From: Verrucomicrobiia bacterium
GTDB taxonomy: Bacteria > Verrucomicrobiota > Verrucomicrobiia > Limisphaerales > UBA1319
Direction: 5' to 3'
Assembly (NCBI GenBank): GCA_963664225.1
Contig: OY760937.1
Coordinates: 1,599,236 to 1,663,235, forward strand
DNA: 64,000 nt
Below the pieces are notes generated by a model that did no database searches, was not told the origin of the DNA, and saw only the letters and a program-made list of their open reading frames with translations. Made by a program: the position numbers and the translations under genes. The stretch's first letter is position 1, and each line of letters starts with the position of its first letter. Shown piece by piece: positions 25,658-62,064 of the stretch.

Positions 25658-28150
25658 TCACGGCATCGCGATCCTATACCAGCGCATTGGATGCCTCCCC
25701 GCATCGGCATCGATGAGTCTCCCAGCCCCCGCAGAATCGGTCTGGTTGGTGCTCAGATTACTCCAGGCCGCTTCCGCCAGCGCATCCCTGCATTGCAGCA
25801 CGTAAGCCTGCCCCGTGCGCCCGCTGAAACTTATCGTGGCCACCCCCTCCTGATAATCCATCGAACGGATCACGATCGTTTCCGTGCTCGCTGCCGCACC
25901 CGCCTCGACCGCAGTTTGCGTTGCGGTCGGTGTATTCGTCGTGCCTGAGAGATGCGGCACTGGAAACCGCCGATGCGTGTTTAATTCCGCCAATCCGATG
26001 AACCGGTTCTTGAACGTCTCATCCAGCGACCCGTCGGAATTCACCCGGGCCAGATGCTGGCGTGGAACCCCATTCACTCTGTCGAAAAATCCGCAGATGA
26101 CAATCCGTCCATCGTTTTGAATCGCCATGTCCATGACGCGCCCTTCTAACGAACTGGCGGTTTTGCATTTGAAACCGGGGTCCGTCGAGCCATTCTTTTC
26201 GAGCCGGACCACCCCGGACGCGTCTTCCCCATTGATGGTCCCGATCAGCCCCGACACCAGTATCCTTCCGCTCCCATCCGTCTTAAGCGTGATGGAACTT
26301 CGGATATCGGCCTCGTATCGATTCGTGAAACTGAAATCAGGCCGCCAATTCCGGTCAAAACGCATCAGCCGGCCGCGCGCTTTCATGGCGCCATCAACAA
26401 CCTCATCCCGTATCGCCAGAATGGCGCCTCCATCCGGCAAACGCACCGCATACCGGCAAAGCTCAATGGGCACTTCCTCAAAAAGCGCCTGGAACACCAC
26501 CGCCGCATCCACCGCGGACGGAGCTTCCGTCCAGCGCTCAAAAGGAAGATCGACCGCAGGCGCCTTTCCGGGCAGATCGGATGCGGGCGCTCCAGCCTGA
26601 AAGGGAGGTCTCCGCGCCGCGGGCGTGTCGCGCGTCCAGTCAATCGCTTTTCGAGTCCAGAATCCGACAGGCCCCAGTGTAAGAACCAATCCCGAAGGTC
26701 GTGAAAATTCCCCATTCGATGAAATCGCGGGAATTGGCAAAACCGGCGCCCCCGTCGCGTCCAGCCGATGCACCGTCCAGGGATAGGGCGCCCTCGGTCC
26801 ATCGACCGCCGCGCTCATCACCGCCATCGTGCCATCGCTAAGCAGCGCGGCAGGAACAATTCCACCCGGCAGATACGGTCTTCCGGGAACATTCGTCCTC
26901 CCGCGCCAGGGCTCGAATGCCTCATCCACACGCCCATCGGACATTAACATCGCATAGCCCGGTCTCTTCCTTTCATCCACCGCATCGAACAGGCCCGAGG
27001 TGAAAATCCTGCCATCGTCACAAACCGTTGCATGCGCGTTCATGGCGCTGGATCCCGGCAGCGTCACACTGGAGAAAAAGGTGCGATCCAGAGAACCGTC
27101 GGGTTGGAGCCGTAACGCCGCCCGCCTGAAATAGCCAAGCGATCCCGACTCCGGATCCGTGAAGTAACCGAACAGGCTTGCCGCCACCACAATCCTGCCG
27201 TCCGCCTGCAGCGCCAATCCGCCCGGGGGAGAACTCAGGGACATGAACGCGGCCTCTGCTAGTGGTTCGCGCACTTCTGTTCCGTCCGGAGCTTCAGCCA
27301 GACCTGAACCCGACGCCACTACCTGATTCGTGCCAGCAACCTTCTCCGCTGGTGTCCCGGACGGCCCATGGTTGACCATCGCGGTGAAGAGGACGCCTCC
27401 GGTCACCAGTGCGGTCGCCCCCAAACCAATAAGCCATTTGTATTTCGCCCAGGCCATCACATTGGGCACGGTCTTGGCGAGCGCCAAAACGGTTGTGGAA
27501 GCGCCTCCACCATTTAAAGCCATTCCCACAACCCCCGCCGCCATTCCTATTGGCGCGGCCTGCACCGAATGGGCCGTCAGCGCTCCCGCAATGGCCGTGC
27601 CCGTCATGACTACACCGCGCTTGGCAAAATATTTTCGCAATCTCTCCAGTGCGCGCGACACCCGCTTTTGCGCCACCTCAGGACTCACCTTCAGCGCCAT
27701 GGCGATTTCCGCTCCAGTTTTCCTCTCAAAATAGCGCAGCACCAGCGCGGCACGATCCGTTTCTCCCAGCGACGTCATCGCCTCCTCCAGCATAGGGGAT
27801 AGTTGCTGCCACGCGGAATTGGGATCGTCGTTTGGCAGTGCGGATTGCATGTAAGCCTCCTGTTCTCGACGTTGACGTCGGCGCTGGATTTTCAAGGCAT
27901 CCGCCGCCGCGTACAGCGCGGCCCGATACAACCACGCGGATAGGATGGTGTTGGGCCCGAGCGTCCCAGCCTTGCGCGCCAGAATGACGAATACGGCTTG
28001 CGTAACGTCCTGCGCCAGATGCGAGTCGCCCACCTGCCGAAGCGCCGCCGAGTGGACCAGCCCAATGTACCGCTCCACCAGCGCGGCAAAGGCCGACTCG
28101 GATTGGCTGGCGACAAACTCCCGCACCAACGCCATGTCGTCGTTCATCAT
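25658..28150 (-). CDS. single-chain ECF sigma factor fused to TM segments and an extracytoplasmic delta-60-repeat domain
   Basis: Sigma region 2 (LAQDVTQAVFVILARK) and region 4 (DRAALVLRYFERKTGAEIAMALKVSPEVAQKRVSRALERLRKYF). TM helices follow. Then repeated DGSLDRTF / DGRIVV / DGSLDETF motifs (delta-60-like). The C-terminus ends ...MRWYRIAMP. Confidence 0.8.
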   Translation of the reverse strand: MMNDDMALVREFVASQSESAFAALVERYIGLVHSAALRQVGDSHLAQDVTQAVFVILARKAGTLGPNTILSAWLYRAALYAAADALKIQRRRQRREQEAYMQSALPNDDPNSAWQQLSPMLEEAMTSLGETDRAALVLRYFERKTGAEIAMALKVSPEVAQKRVSRALERLRKYFAKRGVVMTGTAIAGALTAHSVQAAPIGMAAGVVGMALNGGGASTTVLALAKTVPNVMAWAKYKWLIGLGATALVTGGVLFTAMVNHGPSGTPAEKVAGTNQVVASGSGLAEAPDGTEVREPLAEAAFMSLSSPPGGLALQADGRIVVAASLFGYFTDPESGSLGYFRRAALRLQPDGSLDRTFFSSVTLPGSSAMNAHATVCDDGRIFTSGLFDAVDERKRPGYAMLMSDGRVDEAFEPWRGRTNVPGRPYLPGGIVPAALLSDGTMAVMSAAVDGPRAPYPWTVHRLDATGAPVLPIPAISSNGEFSRPSGLVLTLGPVGFWTRKAIDWTRDTPAARRPPFQAGAPASDLPGKAPAVDLPFERWTEAPSAVDAAVVFQALFEEVPIELCRYAVRLPDGGAILAIRDEVVDGAMKARGRLMRFDRNWRPDFSFTNRYEADIRSSITLKTDGSGRILVSGLIGTINGEDASGVVRLEKNGSTDPGFKCKTASSLEGRVMDMAIQNDGRIVICGFFDRVNGVPRQHLARVNSDGSLDETFKNRFIGLAELNTHRRFPVPHLSGTTNTPTATQTAVEAGAAASTETIVIRSMDYQEGVATISFSGRTGQAYVLQCRDALAEAAWSNLSTNQTDSAGAGRLIDADAGRHPMRWYRIAMP

Positions 28151-30281: not shown

Positions 30282-30590
30282 GCTTTGTCTTTCGTTTTCG
30301 ATGGCCGTCATTCGCCACCATTTCCTACATCAACGTTAAGTGATGCTGCAAATGCTGCCATGGGGTGAAACCCTAACGACTGCACGCGGGAGTGGGCTTG
30401 TGAAGAATGCCAAAACGCCTGAATTATTTGAGAAACCGGTTTCGACGCGAAGAAGGGATGTATGCCTCCGGCTCAGTGAAGGACTTTTGGCCGGCAATCA
30501 AAGGTAGGGTTTCACCCCATATCGTTCGAGCAGATTTCAAGCGATCCTATCCTTGCACAAGATTCAGACGTCACGTCCAACTAAATGATA

Positions 30591-30629
30591 GCGTCAGATC
30601 GGACGTTCCTGTTCCGGATTTCGGGTTAA
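30591..30629 (+). repeat. 39-nt dispersed repeat (third copy of the family flanking the group II intron site)
   Basis: gcgtcagatcggacgttcctgttccggatttcgggttaa matches 60262..60300 at 35/39 positions (manual count). Confidence 0.7.
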
Positions 30630-52015: not shown

Positions 52016-55000
52016 GTGCCTATTATGAACAGAATTCCCATATTTGTTCGGCAGATTCTCACTCGGCCTGGCTCCTTGTCTATTATTCGACGTCCCTCAA
52101 TTGCGCGCTGGAGCCTCATCCCCATTCTCCTTTGTTTTCTTGGCGCGTTGTCCGCTCCAAGGGCTGCCACGTTCGGCGATTTCAACTACTTAAGCAATGA
52201 TACATCCGTCATGATCACCCAATACATTGGCCCGGGTGGCAACGTGATCATTCCAGACACCATCGAGGGCAAACCAATCGCCGTCATCGGCAATGTTGCA
52301 TTCTCGGGTTGCACCAACCTGACAGGCATCACGATCCCCAATGGCGTTAACGAAATTGGGATCAAGGCGTTCTTTGGATGCAAAGCCCTGACGGAACTCA
52401 CAATCCCCAACAGTGTCGCCATTATTGGGAGTTCATCGTTCATTAACTGCAGCAGTCTCACCAATATCACGCTTCCCAATACGCTGACCAGCATCAGCGC
52501 CCTGTCGTTTTCTGGTTGCTTGAAACTGCCCTTTATCGCGATTCCAGACAGTGTCACCAACATTGGGGACAATGCGTTCAGTGGCTGCGCCAGTTTAACA
52601 AGTGTCACAATACCCGCCGGCGTCTCAAAGATTGGTTATCAGGCATTCTTAGGATGCAATAACCTGGTGGCATTCACTGTGAATCCTCTGAATGTGGCTT
52701 ATACAAGTGTTGATGGGGTGCTCTTCGATAAAAACCAGACTTCCCTGATTCAATGCCCGACGGTTAAGACCGGAGACTATACGCCTCCCAACAGCGTGAC
52801 GAGCGTTGGAGATTATGCATTCGCTGACTGTATTGGCCTGACGAATATTGCGCTCCCCAGCGCGGTCACAAACATTGGCAATTTTGCGTTCGCTCGCTGC
52901 GCCAATTTAACGAGCGCACCCATCACGGCTGGCCTCACCGTCATTGGGGCTGGCACATTCTCCGATTGCGTCAGGTTTTCCAACATCGAACTTCCCGCCA
53001 AAATCCTGAAAATCCTGGACGGGGCGTTCTCTGGATGTGCGGCAGTGACGAATATCACAATCGGCGCTGGCACCACCAGGATCGGGGCTATGGCATTCTT
53101 TGGTTGCAACAACCTGATGGCGTTTACAGTGGACCCCCTGAATAAGGCCTTTTGTAGCCTGGATGGGGCATTATTCAGTAAAAACGAGAATTTGCTCATT
53201 CAATGTCCGGCCACAAGGATTGGAAACTACATGATCCCAAACAGCGTCAAAATCATCCAGGATACCGCATTTTTTGGCTGCTCTCGCCTGACAGCCATTA
53301 CGGTGGACGACCTCAACACCGCCTTTTACAGCAGAGATGGCGTATTGTTTGACAAAGGGCTAAAAAGTCTCGTTGCATGCCCTGCTGGCAAGACTGGAAC
53401 TTACTCGATTGACAACAGTATATACAGAATATCCAGTTTTGCATTCTCTGGCTGCAGTCGCCTGACGAATATCATTTTTCCAAGTCGCATTTCGACGGTC
53501 TTCAGCAATGCGTTTATTGATTGCACCGGCCTGACAAGCATCAACCTCCCATACAATTGCAGTGCCGTCACCCCTTATATGTTCTCAGGTTGCACTGGGT
53601 TGGAGAGCGTCATCATCCCCAGTCATGTTGGTGGTGTTTTCGCTACGGCATTCAACAACTGCACGAACTTGTCGGATCTCTATTTTCAGGGCAACAAACC
53701 AACATTCGTAACCGAAGGAACAAATAACACTCTATTTGATGGCGCCTTGCATGCCACCGTATATTACCGCGCTGGAACCACAGGTTGGGACACTAGCTTC
53801 GGCGGCTGGCCTGCCGCGATATGGCTGGATCCGCAAGCGTCCGATTTTGGCTGGAATCAAACAGGGCCGGCTGTCACCATAACTAATTACAGCGGTTCGG
53901 GCGGGAACGCAGCCATCCCGGCCACAATCTTTGGCTATGCTGTCACCAGCATCGGGGATTCTGCGTTCGCTGGCCAAACCAACCTGGCGAGCCTCACAAT
54001 TCCCAACGGCGTGACCAATATTGGGGCCTCATCGTTCGCTGGCTGCACAAGCCTGACGAATGTTATCGTCCCAGGCAGCATGACAACCATCAGTGTCACC
54101 GCATTCGATGGTTGCAACGGCCTGACAAGTGTCTCTTTTGATGGCAATGCGCCGACAGTCACCGGTAATGGCGATCTATTCGCCAATTCCCCCAATGCGA
54201 CAGTGTATTACACCACAGGATCAACAGGCTGGAGTGATACTTTTGGAGGAAGACCAACGGCGCCATTGAGTTACCCCGATACTCACTATTTTATCTACGC
54301 CAGTAATCATTCCGGTCTGACCATAACCGGTTACAACGGTTCCGGCGGGAACGTCATCATTCCAAGTGCAATTTCCGGTTATTCTGTTACCGGCATCGGG
54401 GATTATGCGTTCGCTGGCCAAACCAACCTGGCGAGCATCACGATTCCAAACGGGGTGACCACCATCGGGGATTATGCGTTCAAAGGATGCGTCGGTTTAA
54501 CGTCAGTCGCGATTCCCGACAGTATCACAAGCATGGGAGGCGGTGTTTTTTCAGGCTGCTATGGACTGACATCCGCCCTTCTGCCCGGCAAACTTGGCAA
54601 CATCGGATTTGAAACCTTCTTCAACTGTACAAATTTGACGAACGCCAGAATTGACCCCGGCGTTACCAATATCGGGAACTCCGCCTTCTTTTATTGCGCC
54701 AATCTGACAAACATCACCATCCCCTCCAGTGTGACAACGATTGGGTCCTATGCGTTCAGTGGATGCGCGGCGCTACCCAGTGTGACCTTGTTCAACGGTG
54801 TCACAAACATTGGGAATTGGGTTTTTAGCGGGGACATCGGATTAACGAACATCACGATTCCCGAAAGCGTCACGGACATCGGCCTGTACGCATTCCAGGG
54901 CTGCACTAATCTGGCAGGCGTTGCAATCCCTGCCGGTGTCTCCATACTGCGCGAAGGCGCATTCACTGGTTGCGCTGGCTTGACGAATATTGCGATTCCA

Positions 55001-56998
55001 GACCAAGTCACCAGCATCGAACGCAAAACGTTCCTTGGCTGCAGCAACCTGACCGATGTGGCATTTGGCAAAGGCGTCACCAACATCGATGAACGGGCGT
55101 TTTACGGCTGTGCCAACCTCAAGAGTATCATTGTGCCAGCCAGTGTCGCCGGTATTGGAATCGACGCTTTCAGCGGCTGTAACGCTCTGACGAGCATGTA
55201 CTTTGAAGGCAATGCCCCGGGCAATACAGCCACCCTTTTTCAAAATTCCAACAATGTTAGATTGTATTACCGCTTTGGCACGACGGGCTGGGGTGAATAT
55301 TTCGCTGATCGGCCAACAGCACTTTGGAGTGATCCTGCCGCTCCCGATTTTGTATGTCAGCAACATGGCACAACGATTCATATAATCGGCTACACAGGTT
55401 CCGCCGGGCTCGTCATCATTCCTGACACAATCTATGGCTTGGATGTCACCGATATTGAGAACGGTATTTTCTCAGGGCATGGCAACCTCACCCATGTCAC
55501 CATCCCCGGCAGCATCACGAACATTGGGTACCACGTCTTCATGGATTGCATCGGCCTGACGAATATTACCATACCTGCGAATGTCGCCGCCTTGGGTGAT
55601 TCAGTGTTCTCGGGTTGCACTGGTCTGACGAATATTACCCTACCTGCGAATGTCGCCACCTTGGGTGATTCAGCGTTCTCGGGCTGCACTGGTCTGACGA
55701 ATATTACCCTACCTGCGAATGTCGCCGCCTTGGGTGATTCAGTGTTCTCGGGTTGCACTGGTCTGGCGAATATTACCATACCTGCTAATGTCGCCGCCTT
55801 GGGTGATTCAGCGTTCTCAGGTTGCACTGGTCTGACGAATATTACCCTACCTGCGAATGTCGCCACCTTGGGTGATTCAGCGTTCTCGGGTTGCACTGGT
55901 CTGGCGAATATTACCATACCTGCGAATGTCGCCACCTTGGGTGATTCAGTGTTCTCGGGTTGTACAAGTCTGACGAACGTTGACATCCCCAATCACCTTG
56001 TCGGCTTGGGGTCCTCAGTTTTCGCTGGCTGCACCAAACTTGCCAGCATCACGATTCCAGACGGCGTGACCGGCATTGGCAGCGCGGCCTTCGCTGATTG
56101 CACCAGCCTGGGATCTGTTGTCATACCCGACAGCGTCACCTATATTGGAAACGCAGCCTTCACTCGCTGCATCGGTTTGACGAATGTCACGCTTTCCGTG
56201 TCCGTTACTCTAATTGAAGACGATACGTTTTCAGATTGCGCAAACTTGTCTCACATCCGCATCCCCCAGGGAGTCACGAGTATCGGGAATATGGCGTTTT
56301 CAGGCTGCAGCAGTCTGACGAGCGTAATCGTCCCAAACACCGTCCTTGGCATCGGCAACTACGCCTTCAGGTACTGTGCCGGTTTGACCAACATCGCCAT
56401 CTCCGAAAACTTGATCAGCATGGGTTGGGAAGCCTTGGCTTGGGACAACAGTTTGACCAGCGCGCTTTTTAAGGGAAATGCGACATCCATTTACCCTGCC
56501 GATCAGTTTAAGAATTCCCCCAACGTCACCATCTATTACCGCGCGGGCACTACAGGCTGGGGCTCCACCTTTGCCGGTCGCCCGACCGCCCTGTGGATCG
56601 AGCAACCCACTTATCAGGAGTGGGCCACGACGACCGGTTTGACGGCCAAATTCCCCGACGCCAGCGCGGAAACCGATGACGCCGACCGCGACGGCATGTC
56701 CAACCTGGCCGAAATGCACGCGGGCACAGACCCCATCGATCCGAATTCGAAACTGGCCTTTGAAAGTGTTCCCCGCCCCAACGACCTGGAGGAGGCCGAC
56801 AAAACCGCCCTCGCTCCGGACCAACAGGCCCTGTTCTTCCAGACCGTCCCGGGCAAACAATACATAGTCCAGAGCGTAAACACTTTCGGAGGAACCTGGC
56901 AGACCCAAACCAATTTGACGGCCTCAACCTCCCAAAAACGGGTTTTGCTTAATAAACCGGTCGATCAGGCGTACTATCGCGTAGTTCTGGCACCATAG
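52016..56998 (+). CDS. giant BspA-type leucine-rich-repeat surface protein (1660 aa)
   Basis: Dozens of ~23-aa units (IPxxVTxIGxxAFxGCxxLTx). Recurrent interrepeat modules (YYRAGTTGW..FGGRPTA). A Ca-binding-like DADRDGMSNLAEMHAGTDPIDPNS. The C-terminus ends YYRVVLAP. A signal-like N-terminus is present. An alternative start exists at 52025. Confidence 0.88.
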   Translation: MPIMNRIPIFVRQILTRPGSLSIIRRPSIARWSLIPILLCFLGALSAPRAATFGDFNYLSNDTSVMITQYIGPGGNVIIPDTIEGKPIAVIGNVAFSGCTNLTGITIPNGVNEIGIKAFFGCKALTELTIPNSVAIIGSSSFINCSSLTNITLPNTLTSISALSFSGCLKLPFIAIPDSVTNIGDNAFSGCASLTSVTIPAGVSKIGYQAFLGCNNLVAFTVNPLNVAYTSVDGVLFDKNQTSLIQCPTVKTGDYTPPNSVTSVGDYAFADCIGLTNIALPSAVTNIGNFAFARCANLTSAPITAGLTVIGAGTFSDCVRFSNIELPAKILKILDGAFSGCAAVTNITIGAGTTRIGAMAFFGCNNLMAFTVDPLNKAFCSLDGALFSKNENLLIQCPATRIGNYMIPNSVKIIQDTAFFGCSRLTAITVDDLNTAFYSRDGVLFDKGLKSLVACPAGKTGTYSIDNSIYRISSFAFSGCSRLTNIIFPSRISTVFSNAFIDCTGLTSINLPYNCSAVTPYMFSGCTGLESVIIPSHVGGVFATAFNNCTNLSDLYFQGNKPTFVTEGTNNTLFDGALHATVYYRAGTTGWDTSFGGWPAAIWLDPQASDFGWNQTGPAVTITNYSGSGGNAAIPATIFGYAVTSIGDSAFAGQTNLASLTIPNGVTNIGASSFAGCTSLTNVIVPGSMTTISVTAFDGCNGLTSVSFDGNAPTVTGNGDLFANSPNATVYYTTGSTGWSDTFGGRPTAPLSYPDTHYFIYASNHSGLTITGYNGSGGNVIIPSAISGYSVTGIGDYAFAGQTNLASITIPNGVTTIGDYAFKGCVGLTSVAIPDSITSMGGGVFSGCYGLTSALLPGKLGNIGFETFFNCTNLTNARIDPGVTNIGNSAFFYCANLTNITIPSSVTTIGSYAFSGCAALPSVTLFNGVTNIGNWVFSGDIGLTNITIPESVTDIGLYAFQGCTNLAGVAIPAGVSILREGAFTGCAGLTNIAIPDQVTSIERKTFLGCSNLTDVAFGKGVTNIDERAFYGCANLKSIIVPASVAGIGIDAFSGCNALTSMYFEGNAPGNTATLFQNSNNVRLYYRFGTTGWGEYFADRPTALWSDPAAPDFVCQQHGTTIHIIGYTGSAGLVIIPDTIYGLDVTDIENGIFSGHGNLTHVTIPGSITNIGYHVFMDCIGLTNITIPANVAALGDSVFSGCTGLTNITLPANVATLGDSAFSGCTGLTNITLPANVAALGDSVFSGCTGLANITIPANVAALGDSAFSGCTGLTNITLPANVATLGDSAFSGCTGLANITIPANVATLGDSVFSGCTSLTNVDIPNHLVGLGSSVFAGCTKLASITIPDGVTGIGSAAFADCTSLGSVVIPDSVTYIGNAAFTRCIGLTNVTLSVSVTLIEDDTFSDCANLSHIRIPQGVTSIGNMAFSGCSSLTSVIVPNTVLGIGNYAFRYCAGLTNIAISENLISMGWEALAWDNSLTSALFKGNATSIYPADQFKNSPNVTIYYRAGTTGWGSTFAGRPTALWIEQPTYQEWATTTGLTAKFPDASAETDDADRDGMSNLAEMHAGTDPIDPNSKLAFESVPRPNDLEEADKTALAPDQQALFFQTVPGKQYIVQSVNTFGGTWQTQTNLTASTSQKRVLLNKPVDQAYYRVVLAP
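55561..55974 (+). repeat. six tandem 69-bp (23-codon) near-identical LRR units inside the LRR gene
   Basis: Units start at 55561, 55630, 55699, 55768, 55837 and 55906. They differ at only a few positions. Confidence 0.95.
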
Positions 56999-57008
56999 CG
57001 GGAAAACC

Positions 57009-58058
57009 ATGGAACAAGCGGCTTTTTGCAAAAAGCGGACACGTCATGGATGGCAAAAAGCCGGGTGTTTCGGCATGCCTTGCGCCCCAAACAAAAACAT
57101 TGCAACCCGGTATGGAAGGCGTATATTTAGGCCAACTCCTACGGTTATGTGCTTGTCAGTGTCCAAAACGGCTTTAGAAGAGGCTTGTGACCTCAATGGA
57201 CGAACTGTAGGCGCTCGCTTCGAACCTCTGGATCGCCTGATCTCTGCAAAAACGACCCCATATTCAGACGTTCGTTCACCGCAAATTATTCAGCGACTGG
57301 GTTTTACATTGATCGAAATGCTGGTCGTCATTGCCATCATCTCCATCCTGGCAACCTTGCTCCTTCCGACTTTGAGCCGCGCCAGGGACGGTGCACACAT
57401 CGTCCATTGCAAAAATAACCAACGTCAGTTGGTCATGGCCATGTTCATGTATTCGGAAGATAACGACGATTGGCTTCCGTTGCCCGGCTATTGCCACAAT
57501 CATCCGGCCAATTGGGTCTATCGCGAACTCGATGCCAACAGAAACGTCCTGACCAATGGCAGACCGCTTCATGCCGAGTCCGGCTCGATATTCTCCTATG
57601 TCACCAGCCAGAAGCGCGTCCTGCCGTTCGATCGCAATAACAAATCGAGCTATCCCATTTACCGCTGCCCGGATACAGGCACCTACGGAGAAGCCACCCG
57701 TGTGACGTATAGCATGAATGTTTTCATTCAAAGCGATACCGCCAAACACGATCCCGATGCGGAACCCGCCAGCACCGCCCGCAGTGCCGTCGCCAACCCG
57801 GATCAGAAGGTTCTGCTCGTGGACGACGATCCCAAGGGAGTGGTTCTTGGAACCTTCATTGCCGTCAATTTCAAGCCGGCCATCCAGGGAAAACTCGATA
57901 CCTATCACGACCGTCCATTTGAATTCCCCCATAACGATCGCGGCAATATCTCATTCATGGATGGCCATATCGCCACCATTAAAATCGACAACTTTCAGCA
58001 AATGGTCGGACCGTGGAATATCAGGGTCAAAACCTACTTCGACCCCCCGTTTCGTTGA
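57009..58058 (+). CDS. prepilin-type N-terminal cleavage/methylation domain protein (DUF1559-like); true start uncertain
   Basis: GFTLIEMLVVIAIISILATLLLPTLSRAR sits ~98 codons into the ORF, and the C-terminus has HNDRGNISFMDGH. The nearest upstream in-frame ATG is 57147. No ATG/GTG/TTG lies close to the motif. Confidence 0.75.
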   Translation: MEQAAFCKKRTRHGWQKAGCFGMPCAPNKNIATRYGRRIFRPTPTVMCLSVSKTALEEACDLNGRTVGARFEPLDRLISAKTTPYSDVRSPQIIQRLGFTLIEMLVVIAIISILATLLLPTLSRARDGAHIVHCKNNQRQLVMAMFMYSEDNDDWLPLPGYCHNHPANWVYRELDANRNVLTNGRPLHAESGSIFSYVTSQKRVLPFDRNNKSSYPIYRCPDTGTYGEATRVTYSMNVFIQSDTAKHDPDAEPASTARSAVANPDQKVLLVDDDPKGVVLGTFIAVNFKPAIQGKLDTYHDRPFEFPHNDRGNISFMDGHIATIKIDNFQQMVGPWNIRVKTYFDPPFR

Positions 58059-58115: not shown

Positions 58116-58148
58116 AAGGGAATGACGTTCAAAGCATTCCCTTTTTTT
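58116..58148 (+). terminator. rho-independent terminator
   Basis: Stem AAGGGAATG/CATTCCCTT with a 10-nt loop, followed by TTTTT. Confidence 0.75.
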
Positions 58149-58224
58149 CTGCGGTTAAGTAGAGTAGGCGAAATGGACGGATTGAATGGCCGTGGCCAAT
58201 GACCGTCGCATTTCGCCCCTCATC

Positions 58225-58257
58225 GAACCGGACAGGCGGTTTTCCCGCATCCGGCTC
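58225..58257 (-). ncRNA. group II intron domain V
   Basis: GAGCCGGAUGCGGGAAAACCGCCUGUCCGGUUC has the AGC triad, a 2-nt bulge and a terminal loop. It lies ~30 nt after the RT stop. Confidence 0.85.
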
Positions 58258-58288
58258 TCCGGGGATCATACGTTGCATCGCTTCGACG

Positions 58289-59617
58289 TCATCGTTTCCA
58301 TGCCGCATATTCCGGCATTTGGTATAAACCATAACGCTCATAGAGATCCTCCTTGGGGTATGTGGACCATTGCGCCCGACTACATCCGTGTTTGCGCCAC
58401 AACCATCGTTGTAACTTGCTGCTGACGTATTCGTTCATCTGGCCCATCACCTTGGTGCTGTTCCCGTAGTGAAAGTAACCCTTCCAACCTTTGAGTTTCT
58501 TGTTGAGCTCGGGAATCACCTCTCCGATATCACGCCATAGCGTGCTTCGGTTGAGTTTCTCCCGAATCCCGTCTCGAAACTTCTTCTGGCTCTTGGGATG
58601 GGGTTCCACATGCGGATATTTCCATTTCCCCTTCCCCTGTCGCATTGTTAGCGCGAATCCCAAGAATTTGATGCCATCCTGGCGGAGGTCCACCAAGCGG
58701 GTCTTCTTCTCGTTGAGCACTAACTCGCGTTGCTTCAGCCATCGTTCCAGTCGTTCCATCAGTTCCCGTCCCTGCCCCGGCTGTCCGAGTATCACGAAAT
58801 CATCCGCGTATCTCACCATCACGGGTTTGAGTTCGCAGCGTTCGTTGACTTCCCAATCCAACTGGTTGAGGTATGCATTGGCTAAAATCGGCGATACAAC
58901 CCCGCCTTGCGGAGTCCCCCGTCGATTCTGACCTTGCCCCCCCTTTGTCCCGCCTTTCCCTGTGTCGCTTTGCGGTTCATTCACGGGCGCGCGCAGCCAT
59001 CCTGCGATCAGCTTGAGAATTGTTCCATCGCTGACCCGCTTGGCCACTATGCGCAACAAACGCCTGTGGGGAATGCTGTCAAAATACCCGCTTAAGTCCG
59101 CGTCTATAACTTCGACGCGTCCTGTCAGCGTAGCCTTCTTGATCGCCTCCATTGCTTGGTGGGCATTGCGTTTGGGATGATAGGCGTAACTGTTCGGATG
59201 ACTATCGGCTTCCAGAATCGGCAGCAATACAATCACCACCGCTGTCTGCACCACCCGGTCTTTCACTGTCGGGATGCCCAGGGGTCGCAGCTTCCCGTCT
59301 CCTTTTGGTATATACACACGCTTCACCGGGCTTGGCCGATACTTCTTCGTGCGTAACTCCTCCAGCAGTTGGTTCCGCCATTGGTCCCAGGCTTCGTCGC
59401 TGGCAAGATAGACGTCGCATGTCTGCCCGTCGATCCCAGCCGCGCCATTGTTGTGCGCCACGGAGGCCATTGCCGTTTCCAGCACGTCCTTCCGCAGCAG
59501 TTCTCCGTAGAGGCTGTAAAACCGATACTTCGGCTCAGCCTTGGCTTTGCAATATAGCGCTCGCTGCAGCTTTTGAACTTTTATCGGGGTTGTTATCCGT
59601 TGAAAAAGTGTTTCCAC
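58289..59617 (-). CDS. group II intron reverse transcriptase/maturase (no obvious HNH endonuclease domain)
   Basis: NNGAAGIDGQT, LRPLGIPTVKDRVVQTAV, SYAYHPKRNAHQA, GTPQGGVVSPILAN and RYADDFVILG, plus the maturase region. The track ORF is open to 59974, but those codons overlap intron domains I-III. A GTG at 59617 is a plausible start. Confidence 0.85.
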   Translation of the reverse strand: METLFQRITTPIKVQKLQRALYCKAKAEPKYRFYSLYGELLRKDVLETAMASVAHNNGAAGIDGQTCDVYLASDEAWDQWRNQLLEELRTKKYRPSPVKRVYIPKGDGKLRPLGIPTVKDRVVQTAVVIVLLPILEADSHPNSYAYHPKRNAHQAMEAIKKATLTGRVEVIDADLSGYFDSIPHRRLLRIVAKRVSDGTILKLIAGWLRAPVNEPQSDTGKGGTKGGQGQNRRGTPQGGVVSPILANAYLNQLDWEVNERCELKPVMVRYADDFVILGQPGQGRELMERLERWLKQRELVLNEKKTRLVDLRQDGIKFLGFALTMRQGKGKWKYPHVEPHPKSQKKFRDGIREKLNRSTLWRDIGEVIPELNKKLKGWKGYFHYGNSTKVMGQMNEYVSSKLQRWLWRKHGCSRAQWSTYPKEDLYERYGLYQMPEYAAWKR

Positions 59618-60133
59618 TCCCTCAAGGCCATCTCCCTGTCCCTCGCTGTTTTGATTCGCTTCGATCCAAGTGCCTTCCCTTGGCTCCGCCGGGGTTTTGG
59701 TCGCCCCAGCTTCTTCGCTACTATGGAAGACTCCGACTTCTCTGGCTGCCCGTGCGGCCTCGGAGGGTGTTCCTCCTTGCACCGGCGGTTGAGGCTTTAT
59801 CGCCCCGCCTCCAGAGATCTCCCAGCTTACCTTGGTTTCCCTTCCTGTCGTGTCGCCCTCGCTGACTCCGCCGGAATCAACAGCGCCCATTTGACGATTT
59901 GATGACGCCGCGTTTCTGCCTTCGCCGTTCGGGTAGCGGCTCGGCTTACCGGTTATTTCGGTTTCGGAGCTCATTTGATGAGGTTTACTTTCGTTACGAC
60001 CCGACAGTTCTTTCAGCGTCCCGCTTGTGGTTCGGCCTCACGGCCTCGTCCCGGACGCTGCATTTCGGTCGTGAACCGTCTAATTCGACCGGCGGGACTT
60101 TCACCCACGAGGCTACCAATTTCACTGGCGCAC

Positions 60134-60297
60134 ACCCGAAATCCGAAATAAGAATGGTCAAGATGATACAATGCTTTGAGACAGCCATGATTTGCAATCG
60201 GCGAAGGTGTATTAAATCAATACTCCACAGCCGGTTTTAAACCATGGATGGCCAAATGATTGCGTCAGATGGGCCGTTCCTATTTCGGATTTCGGGT
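60134..60297. repeat. 164-bp element bounded by 24-bp imperfect inverted repeats (MITE-like or long hairpin), abutting the intron 5' end
   Basis: The left arm acccgaaatccgaaataagaatgg (60134-60157) is the reverse complement of the right arm ccgttcctatttcggatttcgggt (60274-60297) at 22/24 positions. Confidence 0.7.
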
Positions 60298-60339
60298 TAA
60301 ATCCAATCCAATTAGTGATCAGCGGTTTTGTTCCTTCAT

Positions 60340-60790
60340 TCGCAAAACCCACGCGGTGGCCACCTCCCAAACCATCCAATCGCTCCAGAACCGTCCAATA
60401 CTCCTCCCTCTCCATCGCCAGATGGAGAAGGGCGGGACGAGAATTCCCCGAACCGAAAAGATCGCGCATTGAACCCCTGAACCAGGTATTTATGCATGTT
60501 GCTTGTAATGGAAGACATCGCACTTTTGGGTTCATGGGTAGGGCGTGCGTCAATAAGTTTTCCATTTCGCATATTTCGTGGTTAATTTCCTTTTTTCTTT
60601 TCTTGTCAATCATCCATTCTCCACTCGCCAACCCCACGCGGCGGCACCTCCAAACCACCCACTTGGTCATATGTCAATTGTCCCCTCGCCAACACGGTGC
60701 GGCCGTATCCTCCAAACCGTGCAAAAAAACCAGGACTCGCAATACTCCTCCCTCTCCGCTTTGGGGAGAGGGACGGGGTGAGGTGGCTTT
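60340..60790. repeat. cluster of short dispersed/REP-like repeats and GC hairpins
   Basis: Three copies of ..ccacgcggYggc(c)acctcc(c)aaacc.. at ~60348, ~60632 and ~60690. Two copies of caatactcctccctctcc + hairpin (ctctccatcgccagatggagaag at ~60410; cctctccgctttggggagagg at ~60745). Confidence 0.6.
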
Positions 60791-60905
60791 TCGTATCCCA
60801 TCATTCGCATCCAGGGTGTTCGTTTTTTCGATGCCTCAATTGTCCATTTTCTCCCTCATCCGTGCCATCCGTGATAACAGTGGTTAAAAATCCTGCTCAT
60901 CCTGC

Positions 60906-61223
60906 TTATCCATGTTGATATTTCTTCACCCACTTCTTTCCATGTAACTTGTAATGAAAGACATCCCACTTTGGGTTCATGGGGAGGGCGGTCGTCCTTT
61001 CGTATCTGACTTTTGCCAGACCCTCAATCGGCGCCCGGCCATTCCCGAAACTCTTGCTATCTTTGTTTCGTATATACTCACATGCCTGTTTTAAGGACTT
61101 TTTCGCTTGCCGAAGGTTTTTGTCATGCACCCAAAATGTCCTTCGCCTCGGAATATTGATTGCCAGTTTCGCCAAATCGTTCCAACCTTGCTGAATGCGA
61201 ACAGTGACTTCGACGTCGGCCAT
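60906..61223 (-). CDS. hypothetical protein (weak call)
   Basis: MADVEVTVRIQQGWNDL...PMNPKWDVFHYKLHGKKWVKKYQHG. The ATG at 61223 is divergent from panC. A ~45-nt piece of its 3' end is repeated at ~60500, so it may be a repeat-derived or decaying ORF. Confidence 0.3.
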   Translation of the reverse strand: MADVEVTVRIQQGWNDLAKLAINIPRRRTFWVHDKNLRQAKKSLKQACEYIRNKDSKSFGNGRAPIEGLAKVRYERTTALPMNPKWDVFHYKLHGKKWVKKYQHG

Positions 61224-62064
61224 GCAAAAACTGGCCTTGGGTTGGAAACGCGCGGGACGCCGCATCGGCTTTGTGCCGACCATGGGTTATTTGCACGCCG
61301 GTCACATCAGCCTCGTGGAAAAAGCCCGCCAGAAGGTGGGCCCGGATGGGATCGTCGTCGTAAGCATTTACGTCAATCCCACCCAATTCTCCCCGCAGGA
61401 GGACCTGGCCAAGTACCCCCGGGACCTGGCGCGCGACCAAAAACTCTGCCGTGCCGCCGGAACGGACCTCATTTTCGCTCCCGCCAATGACCAGATGTAT
61501 CCACCGGTTGGTCGGGTGCCCTACAGCACCTATGTGGCCGAGGAATTCTTATCCCAGGTCATGGAAGGCAAGGCCCGTCCGGTGCATTTCCGGGGAGTAA
61601 CCACGGTCGTGGCCAAACTATTCAACATCGTCCTGCCGGATGTGGCCGTCTTTGGGGCCAAGGATTATCAACAGGCGGCCATTATTACGAAAATGGTCCG
61701 CGACCTGAATTTCCCCATCCAGATCATCGTCGCCCCCACCTTGCGGGAACCCGACGGTCTGGCCATGAGTTCGCGCAATAAATACCTGTCCCCGTCCGAA
61801 AGATCCCAGGCCCTTTCCCTGTCCCAGGCCTTGCAACAGGCCCGCGCCGCAGTCCTTAAATCCCCGGCTGGCATTCCTGTGGAGCGCCTTCGAAAGCATC
61901 TGCTTGCCGATTTCGCCAGACACCCCGCCGCCCGCGTCGATTACATCGAATTCTTCGATCCCGAAACCCTGCAACCCGCCCGCAGCATCCGAAAAGGTGT
62001 TCACATGGCCATGGCGGTGTATATTGGCAAAACGCGCCTGATCGACAACGGCACACTCGCCTGA
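61195..62064 (+). CDS. panC: pantoate--beta-alanine ligase
   Basis: IGFVPTMGYLHAGHISLV, FGAKDYQQ and the SSRN motif (LAMSSRNKYL). Confidence 0.93.
   Translation: MRTVTSTSAMQKLALGWKRAGRRIGFVPTMGYLHAGHISLVEKARQKVGPDGIVVVSIYVNPTQFSPQEDLAKYPRDLARDQKLCRAAGTDLIFAPANDQMYPPVGRVPYSTYVAEEFLSQVMEGKARPVHFRGVTTVVAKLFNIVLPDVAVFGAKDYQQAAIITKMVRDLNFPIQIIVAPTLREPDGLAMSSRNKYLSPSERSQALSLSQALQQARAAVLKSPAGIPVERLRKHLLADFARHPAARVDYIEFFDPETLQPARSIRKGVHMAMAVYIGKTRLIDNGTLA

Follow-up and report, generated by a model that had tools for sequence, protein, structure and literature searches.

We describe a group II intron that lies flush with a long inverted-repeat hairpin in a 64,000-nt (64-kb) stretch of the genome of a Verrucomicrobiia bacterium (Limisphaerales, UBA1319; assembly GCA_963664225.1, contig OY760937.1, positions 1,599,236 to 1,663,235), hereafter the window. 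In the reading that we favor, and to which we give a probability of about 80%, a miniature inverted-repeat transposable element (MITE) of the insertion sequence (IS) family IS1380 inserted here, and an intron of class E/F type, whose protein lacks an endonuclease (En) domain, later reached the tip of this MITE by base-pair-guided retrohoming. The evidence that carries this reading is the pairing between exon-binding site 1 (EBS1) of the intron and the end of its 5' exon (intron-binding site 1, IBS1): the target site is selected through this RNA-DNA pairing and not through the shape of the hairpin.

Results

EBS1 pairing selects the target site

The intron is encoded on the minus strand (Table 1). 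Its EBS1, which falls in the terminal loop of the Rfam structure line, is complementary to positions -7 to -1 of the 5' exon (UUCGGGU), and these last seven nucleotides comprise six bases of the repeat element and one T. The original prediction had left the EBS1 and IBS1 partners to be identified; ACCCGAA and UUCGGGU form a 7-bp pairing whose counterparts covary among related introns.

Related copies were gathered through a protein search, from contigs encoding particular homologues, by a scan of species-representative genomes and by a metagenome scan using the invariant bases of the intron 5' end. Homologues of the reverse transcriptase (RT) number in the thousands, and the best 120 are 68-96% identical and lie mostly on contigs of about 2 kb, as expected because the intron is a multi-copy repeat. 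The clade was found in soil, peat and freshwater metagenomes, and its members yielded about 50 distinct 5' junctions (loci are cited below by L numbers).

At least 12 EBS1 variants occur in the clade (ACCCGAA, ACCUUAA, ACCUGAA, UCCUGAA, CCACGGAU, GCAUCCA, GCGUCAA, GUCUAAC, ACGACUC, GCCGGAA, ACGAAAA and AUCCGAA), and in each case the exon end of that intron is complementary to it. In a formal count over 29 distinct junctions, 88% of the EBS1-IBS1 cells were paired, and 52 double-sided changes were observed, in 7 of the 8 pairs. The covariation score was 0.67, compared with 0.18 after shuffling (none of 500 shuffles scored as high) and with at most 0.20 when the partner columns were slid. Since EBS1 covaries with the exon end, the intron itself selects its site.

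The end of the element next to the intron provides both IBS1 and a candidate IBS2. The candidate EBS2 could pair either as UCCGAAA (59968-59962) with exon positions -15 to -9, or as CCGAAAUAA (59961-59953) with positions -19 to -11. The first base of the 3' exon was T in most junctions in which the 3' exon was read; it was A in L014 and C in L120.

In L001-L008, which come from contigs encoding the homologue P0092, one intron sequence joins two 5' contexts to three 3' contexts across assemblies. Either assembly has joined different intron copies into chimeric contigs, or recombination takes place between the copies.

The hairpin has the termini of IS1380-family elements

Positions 60134-60157 pair with 60274-60297 through 22 Watson-Crick pairs and one G·T among 24 positions. 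The whole 164-nt segment (60134-60297) folds as a single long hairpin, at -69.5 kcal/mol as RNA (z = -7.0) and at -35.1 kcal/mol as DNA (z = -5.75), and none of 200 shuffled sequences folded as well. Pairing and fold scores agree with the earlier claim that a long inverted repeat ends exactly where the intron starts.

Read without the intron, the site is GGA-TTTAA-CCCGAAATCC...GGATTTCGGG-TTTAA-CCGCAG: 162 bp of element, bounded by CC...GG, between the two copies of a 5-bp direct duplication. One TTTAA copy is intact (Table 1). The other consists of 60134 and 58155-58158: the intron splits it after its first T, one base past the CC...GG end of the element and within the target-site duplication. 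Elements of the IS1380 family generate duplications of 4-5 bp and have ends that start with CC.

Related loci connect these termini to transposase genes. L101 carries a 1,531-bp element with window-like ends (ACCCGAACUCCGAAGU...) that encodes a 473-aa IS1380 transposase (NF033539, 228 bits against a cutoff of 180; Pfam DDE_Tnp_1_4), and the intron begins at the first base past this element, at the end upstream of the transposase gene (tnp). In L128, the transposase is 93% identical to that of L101 and its C-terminus adjoins the repeat and the intron, so the other IS end is also used. Both IS1380 ends therefore serve as targets, the tnp-proximal one in L101 and the tnp-distal one in L128. A decayed IS1380 transposase adjoins a ACCTTAAAACGG-type end and the intron in L106. 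Judging from the termini that it shares with these copies encoding IS1380 transposases (L101, L128 and L106), the window hairpin is a MITE of an IS1380-family element.

Among the relatives, there are repeated cases of a MITE, 61-200 nt long, whose arm end directly abuts the intron. The elements in L103, L105, L132 and L141 are 161-165 nt long, like the 164-nt element of the window, and their terminal ~45 nt are alignable. In its CC-start ends, its 5-bp AT-rich duplication and the presence of the same or closely similar ends on transposase-encoding copies, the window element resembles known IS1380 ISs and MITEs. It differs from the ISs in that this copy has no transposase (the open reading frames (ORFs) overlapping the MITE gave no family match) and in that the 64 kb hold just one full copy and one solo end. 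A sigma-70 promoter scan of the MITE found nothing able to drive the intron.

Two further sites in the window, 60284-60297(+) at the other end of the MITE and 30613-30626(+) at the solo end, match IBS1 perfectly and are unoccupied, which bears out the suggestion that a dispersed MITE-like repeat offers the intron multiple homing sites. We attribute a weak motif match in ordinary sequence, at 26297-26312, to chance.

Elsewhere in the clade, lineages occupy the ends of short palindromes made up of 9-nt repeats, CCACGGAUnA... / ...AUCCGUGG (L012, L114 and L147-L156), whose ends also start with CC. In the window, 60858-60895 (CATCCGTGCCATCCGTGATAACAGTGGTTAAAAATCC) resembles an arm of such 9-nt periodic palindromes (CCACGGATnACACGGAT); it is unoccupied, and the EBS1 of the window intron would not match it. 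In L148-L153, sequence outside the 75-nt CCACGGAT hairpin is conserved as well (CACTACAGCGACACTTCC...GAATTCAA upstream and TGTCACTTCAGC.TGGTTAAGCGGCGGGATACCC downstream), and a larger repeat unit may enclose this hairpin.

A full-length intron with features of classes E and F

The window intron is complete and full-length, and it occupies an intergenic site. Its boundaries are consistent with full-length alignments to 15 related copies of 70-95% nucleotide identity. Rfam family RF02005 (group-II-D1D4-6) matches 60101-59856 at 54.9 bits (gathering threshold 49) over model positions 1-225, the full length of the model, and RF00029 (domains V and VI; DV and DVI) matches 58259-58159 at 49.3 bits (gathering threshold 40); the scan of the 64-kb window returned no other RNA family. 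The 5' terminus GUGCGCC, beginning at 60133, agrees with the GUGYG start of group II introns, and DV, GAGCCGGAUGCGGGAAAACCGCCUGUCCGGUUC, occupies 58257-58225.

These covariance-model matches, for domains I-IV as well as for DV/DVI, uphold the complete intron proposed in the original prediction, including its 5' end at 60133 and the placement of DV. The proposed DVI-like helix ending at 58159 needs adjustment: the intron boundary at 58159 is right, and the 3' strand of the helix, CAUUUCGCCUAC, stops at 58164, with the CUCUAC end of the intron reached five bases further on.

The intron is probably still mobile. Recent movement is suggested by L009, from another metagenome, in which a 95%-identical copy occupies an unrelated site.

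Several copies depart from the usual arrangement. In L109 (Ga0315281_10646140), one intron copy starts right after the 3' end of another (...CCGCCTACTCTAC), giving a head-to-tail tandem. In L111, L117 and L140, DV lies at 1522-1577 rather than at ~1864, and the copies are some 290-340 nt shorter; they presumably derive from ORF deletion. In L111 and L117, an additional hairpin of ~60 nt is inserted next to the EBS1 stem.

The RT/maturase ORF matches Pfam RVT_1 (1.8e-34) and GIIM (1e-13) and the NCBIfam equivalog TIGR04416 (357 bits against a cutoff of 300). Its translation carries GAAGIDG, RPLGIPTVKDRVVQ and YADDFVILG, with the YADD codons at 58810-58799. Family searches of the ORF found no DNA-binding/endonuclease (D/En) or HNH domain, as predicted from the letters alone, and the ORF stops shortly past the X domain.

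The gene call is 561 aa long and starts upstream of this ORF. In an alignment of eight relatives, the fractions of variable columns at the three codon positions were 0.44/0.43/0.42 over codons 1-118 and 0.39/0.28/0.81 over the RT part. Because variation in the N-terminal extension is equal at all three positions, unlike in the RT part, the first ~118 codons are noncoding and represent an open frame through the ribozyme; the original prediction had likewise read the first ~119 codons as domains I-III. The same comparison ruled out that the extension is a genuine coding region, as the calls of 558-576 aa in relatives might suggest. The real start is most likely the GTG at 59617. Relatives are mostly called as proteins of 557-576 aa, and the open frame through domains I-III is inherited clade-wide.

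Published descriptions assign to classes IIE and IIF a 5-nt DV loop, a ribozyme of 450-700 nt and a protein consisting of RT and X domains (RT-X) without En (PMC3753933). The window intron has all three: a 5-nt DV loop, 646 nt of ribozyme when the ORF is subtracted, and an RT-X protein without D/En. Two features of class C, a ribozyme of ~400 nt with a shortened EBS1 and an IBS outside the stem, are both absent. The RT scored 166-183 bits against class C (IIC) RTs and 160 against CL RTs with phmmer, and 278 against Ni.ha.I1 and 323 against a Bradyrhizobium plasmid intron with tblastn, values from different programs that are only roughly comparable. Ni.ha.I1 is listed as class F/g3 (Table S2 of PMC3552965); it shares GUGCGCC, the 5-nt DV loop and CUCUAC with the window intron, and the RT is 39-43% identical to those of the g3 members Ni.ha.I1 and the Bradyrhizobium intron. 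On these sequence features, we would place the window intron as IIB-like, of class E/F type with the subclass left open, and not in class C. In the literature we found no class labels for the Rfam D1D4 families.

Table 1 Features of the intron, its target element and the flanking sequence in the window
Feature	Position	Strand	Basis
Complete group II intron, 1,975 nt (5' GUGCGCC ... CUCUAC 3')	58159..60133	-	Rfam matches
Ribozyme domains I-III and 5' part of domain IV	59618..60133	-	RF02005 match; no third-position bias
EBS1 ACCCGAA, in the 9-nt loop of the hairpin GCCG-CUACCCGAA-CGGC (59940-59924)	59928..59934	-	Rfam structure, covariation
Candidate EBS2 region	59953..59968	-	Complementarity read directly
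RT/maturase ORF, GTG start, 442 aa plus stop	58289..59617	-	Pfam, TIGR04416, codon-position bias
DV, AGC triad, 5-nt GAAAA loop (GCGG-GAAAA-CCGC)	58225..58257	-	RF00029 alignment
DVI, predicted bulged branch-point A at 58165, 3' terminal AC	58159..58219	-	RF00029 alignment
IS1380-family MITE, 162 bp (CCCGAAAUCCGAAAU... / ...AUUUCGGAUUUCGGG)	60135..60296		Long hairpin; termini homologous to IS1380 copies
Target-site duplication copy TTTAA (intron sense)	60297..60301		Direct reading
Unoccupied perfect target (TTCGGATTTCGGGT, then T), opposite strand, other MITE end	60284..60298	+	IBS1 match
Solo end of the MITE/IS family, with unoccupied target (TCCGGATTTCGGGT, then T)	30580..30627	+	Aligned with MITE end
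Terminator-like hairpin of the pilin-like gene (9-bp stem, T7, 10-nt loop)	58116..58148	+	Direct reading

Stems at insertion sites

Hairpins are frequent where introns of this clade insert. Among 38 distinct junctions with 300 nt of flank, an inverted repeat scoring at least 9 and ending no more than 6 nt from the junction was present at 26%, compared with 1.7% of 360 control positions. About half of the 38 junctions had no partner arm within these 300 nt. A requirement for the stem is improbable, because about half of the junctions lack an arm at this distance, because the partner end of a full IS lies 1.5 kb away, and because the bases that pair with the intron sit inside the arm. The stem is a by-product of the terminal inverted repeats and not a recognition signal. 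The original prediction had treated insertion right after a stem-loop as the hallmark of class C-type introns, a view that does not hold where introns use identical targets at the ends of IS1380 copies of 1.5 kb and where junctions have no arm within 300 nt.

A reading in which both sequence and structure count is that pairing fixes the site, while extrusion of the MITE hairpin in single-stranded or supercoiled DNA aids access or binds the protein, with MITEs preferred over IS ends. We regard such dual recognition as quite improbable. Many occupied sites are indeed short MITEs rather than full IS copies; however, MITEs may simply outnumber full IS copies, and contigs break at repeats, which biases what is observed. 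Placement exactly at the base of the stem would also fit, but a formed stem would hide both IBS1 and IBS2.

The original prediction itself favored stem-loop targeting of the class C type, in which a class C-like intron recognizes a DNA stem-loop and inserts just after it, the MITE merely supplying the stem. This now appears very unlikely. In IIC introns, EBS1 is shortened and EBS2 is lacking, and the IIC intron of O. iheyensis has a ribozyme of ~412 nt (PMC3753933), whereas the window intron has a covarying 7-nt EBS1, a ribozyme of 646 nt and a 5-nt DV loop. The intron does lie flush with the 3' end of the stem, both in the window and at hairpins of unrelated sequence (L012, L114, L014, L099, L129 and L137), and hairpins are enriched about 15-fold over controls; yet the IBS is inside the 3' arm, where a formed stem would occlude it, the same targets are present where 1.5-kb IS copies end and also at solo ends (window 30613-30626), and about half of the junctions have no arm. 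The best PDB sequence match of the protein is a IIC RT (7uim, 183 bits), although PDB RTs separate intron classes poorly, and the scores against class F/g3 introns (278-323 bits), roughly comparable as they are, exceed those against IIC RTs.

That MITE and intron move as one unit through the IS1380 transposase, in the manner of an IStron or by one-ended transposition as in ISEcp1, a member of the IS1380 family that carries adjacent DNA, is hardly credible: the intron is just outside an intact element end and leaves the IS undisrupted, but many different elements lie 5' of it, either IS end can adjoin it, no element at all is present in L009, L010 and L013, MITE ends exist without the intron, the flank past the intron holds no second element end, and EBS1 covariation indicates that the intron picks its site itself.

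A model for the insertion

Base-pair-guided retrohoming to a MITE tip is thus the history that we propose. An IS1380-family MITE of 162 bp would have integrated 10 bp past the terminator that follows the pilin-like gene, with duplication of TTTAA, and a full-length, IIB-like, En-less group II intron would later have retrohomed to its outer tip. There, EBS1 would have paired with the last 7 nt of the 5' exon and the candidate EBS2 with bases deeper in the terminal inverted repeat, ahead of a 3' exon starting with T. The inverted ends would give each element two target sites, one per strand. Across the clade, EBS1 would have changed in step as IS1380-type ends diverged.

Because the protein has no En domain, we infer that the ribonucleoprotein (RNP) reverse-splices into DNA that is briefly single-stranded at a replication fork, where the nascent strand would prime cDNA synthesis. 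Such a mechanism would account for the fact that, of the available sites, the intron occupies solely the one on the G-rich, leading-like strand. Over the full 64 kb, the plus strand has a negative GC skew, and the sense strand of the intron is the G-rich minus strand; both empty sites with a perfect IBS1 are on the plus strand. This pattern, drawn from one locus, is consistent with the lagging-strand-template bias of En-less introns.

Several observations weigh against this model or parts of it. The mobility mechanism is deduced from the domains present and from a single GC-skew profile. Given the strong enrichment of hairpins at insertion sites, structure may have a helper role. EBS2 complementarity across relatives could not be separated from that with foreign exons (mean of 5.2 for the own exon and 5.0 for controls). 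The flank pairs of chimeric contigs are untrustworthy and TA/TTAA duplications cannot be read in them, and the TTTAA of the window is the only duplication that we trust. Regarding the class, the nearest named intron found, Ni.ha.I1, has an RT that is just 39.5% identical, and the best plasmid-borne relatives stand at ~40%. Domain I of Ni.ha.I1 and of the Bradyrhizobium intron L019 matches RF02003 (94-102 bits), and that of the window intron and L114 matches RF02005; the window intron does not share the domain I type of the known g3 members (Ni.ha.I1, D.a.I1 and Bradyrhizobium).

A more far-reaching reading is that this abundant clade is a dedicated hyperparasite of IS1380 elements, homing to the junction between tip and flank in such a way that the IS is left functional, with EBS1 following the element ends. 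To spread, the clade may in addition take advantage of MITE hairpins extruded on single-stranded DNA, or of one-ended IS1380 transposition. We consider this rather unlikely; if true, it would represent a structure-assisted mode of homing that arose independently of class C.

Surroundings of the intron

As predicted, the 3' exon begins 10 nt past the T-run of a terminator-like hairpin, which we read directly; a simple terminator scan overlooked this hairpin because of its 10-nt loop. It belongs to a convergent pilin-like gene (57009-58058) whose product has a prepilin N-terminal methylation motif. Immediately upstream of this gene, 52016-56998 encodes a 1,660-aa ORF consisting almost entirely of ~23-residue repeats of the leucine-rich type (…NAFSGCTGLTNITIP…).

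On the other side, the 1 kb from the MITE to panC is made of degenerate direct repeats (60334-60385 and 60619-60668; 60510-60550 and 60955-60995). Two small minus-strand ORFs, 60212-60670 and 60906-61283, have an 'ALPMNPK' segment in common and match no known family. At 61031, there is a break in a short-read assembly of this organism. Exact look-ups with the 561-aa ORF and with panC returned nothing, and one with nadB led to the source contig (ENA ERZ21878371 contig_9) but to no intron-free allele.

A second MITE-like inverted repeat of ~164 nt, with different ends (ATGGGGTGAAACCCTAAC ... TAGGGTTTCACCCCAT), occupies window positions 30360-30523 and folds at -31.4 kcal/mol as DNA (z = -2.9). 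Its position is intergenic, ahead of a CheB-like gene and a short way upstream of the solo IS1380-type end (30580-30626).

Discussion

The closest precedent for our observations is RmInt2, which homes to each of the two inverted repeats of ISRm17 and shows a lagging-strand bias; RmInt1 and RmInt2 reverse-splice at replication forks, with a nascent strand as primer (PMC4615759). Like RmInt2, the window intron has no endonuclease domain, has its target in the terminal inverted repeats of an IS, with two opposite-strand sites per element, recognizes it through EBS/IBS pairing in which the candidate EBS2 would be relaxed, and belongs to a clade in which a head-to-tail tandem occurs. The strand that is occupied in the window is also compatible with the lagging-strand bias of RmInt2. 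In contrast to RmInt2, the window intron has a 5-nt DV loop, which points to another class, its RT is distant, and the IS family is IS1380. Moreover, its site is at, or one base past, the outermost base of the element, the IS stays intact and MITEs are among the targets. Finally, the habit is clade-wide, with many EBS1 variants, whereas RmInt2 is one intron in one strain.

Among described classes, class F/IIF, represented by Ge.ur.I1 of Geobacter uraniireducens (PMC3753933; Table S2 of PMC3552965), resembles the window intron in its IIB-like ribozyme of 450-700 nt, its 5-nt DV loop, its 5' GUGCG and 3' AC, its RT-X protein without En and its noncoding insertion sites. The ORF call of Ge.ur.I1 is likewise long (522 aa). 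In the 5' exon of this intron, repeated IBS1 motifs lie 9 and 19 nt upstream of the splice site, and these recall the 9-nt arms (ATCCGTGnn)n of L012, L114 and L147-L156, a likeness drawn from descriptions of Ge.ur.I1 and not from its sequence. IIC introns are similar to ours in having no En and in lying in intergenic sites next to a stem. They differ in their ~400-nt ribozyme, shortened EBS1 and absence of EBS2, and in that they read the stem as a structure and have IBS1 downstream of it, whereas here a 7-nt pairing lies inside the arm. Homing into sequence-defined sites is the rule for all classes but C (PMC4424553). We found no description in the literature of group II introns associated with IS1380 or MITE ends, which is not proof of novelty.

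For annotation, the repeat next to the intron should be labelled an IS1380-family MITE, and the 561-aa gene call is too long by about 118 codons. Across the clade, a spurious N-terminus of ~115 aa inflates protein databases.

A group II intron flush with a hairpin is thus not necessarily a structure reader of the IIC type. Our data document at scale, with about 50 junctions and at least 12 EBS1 variants, a behavior known for one rhizobial intron, RmInt2. They suggest that En-less introns can specialize on transposon termini, which offer safe, repeated sites on both strands, and the natural pairs of EBS1 and target assembled here may help the retargeting of En-less introns.

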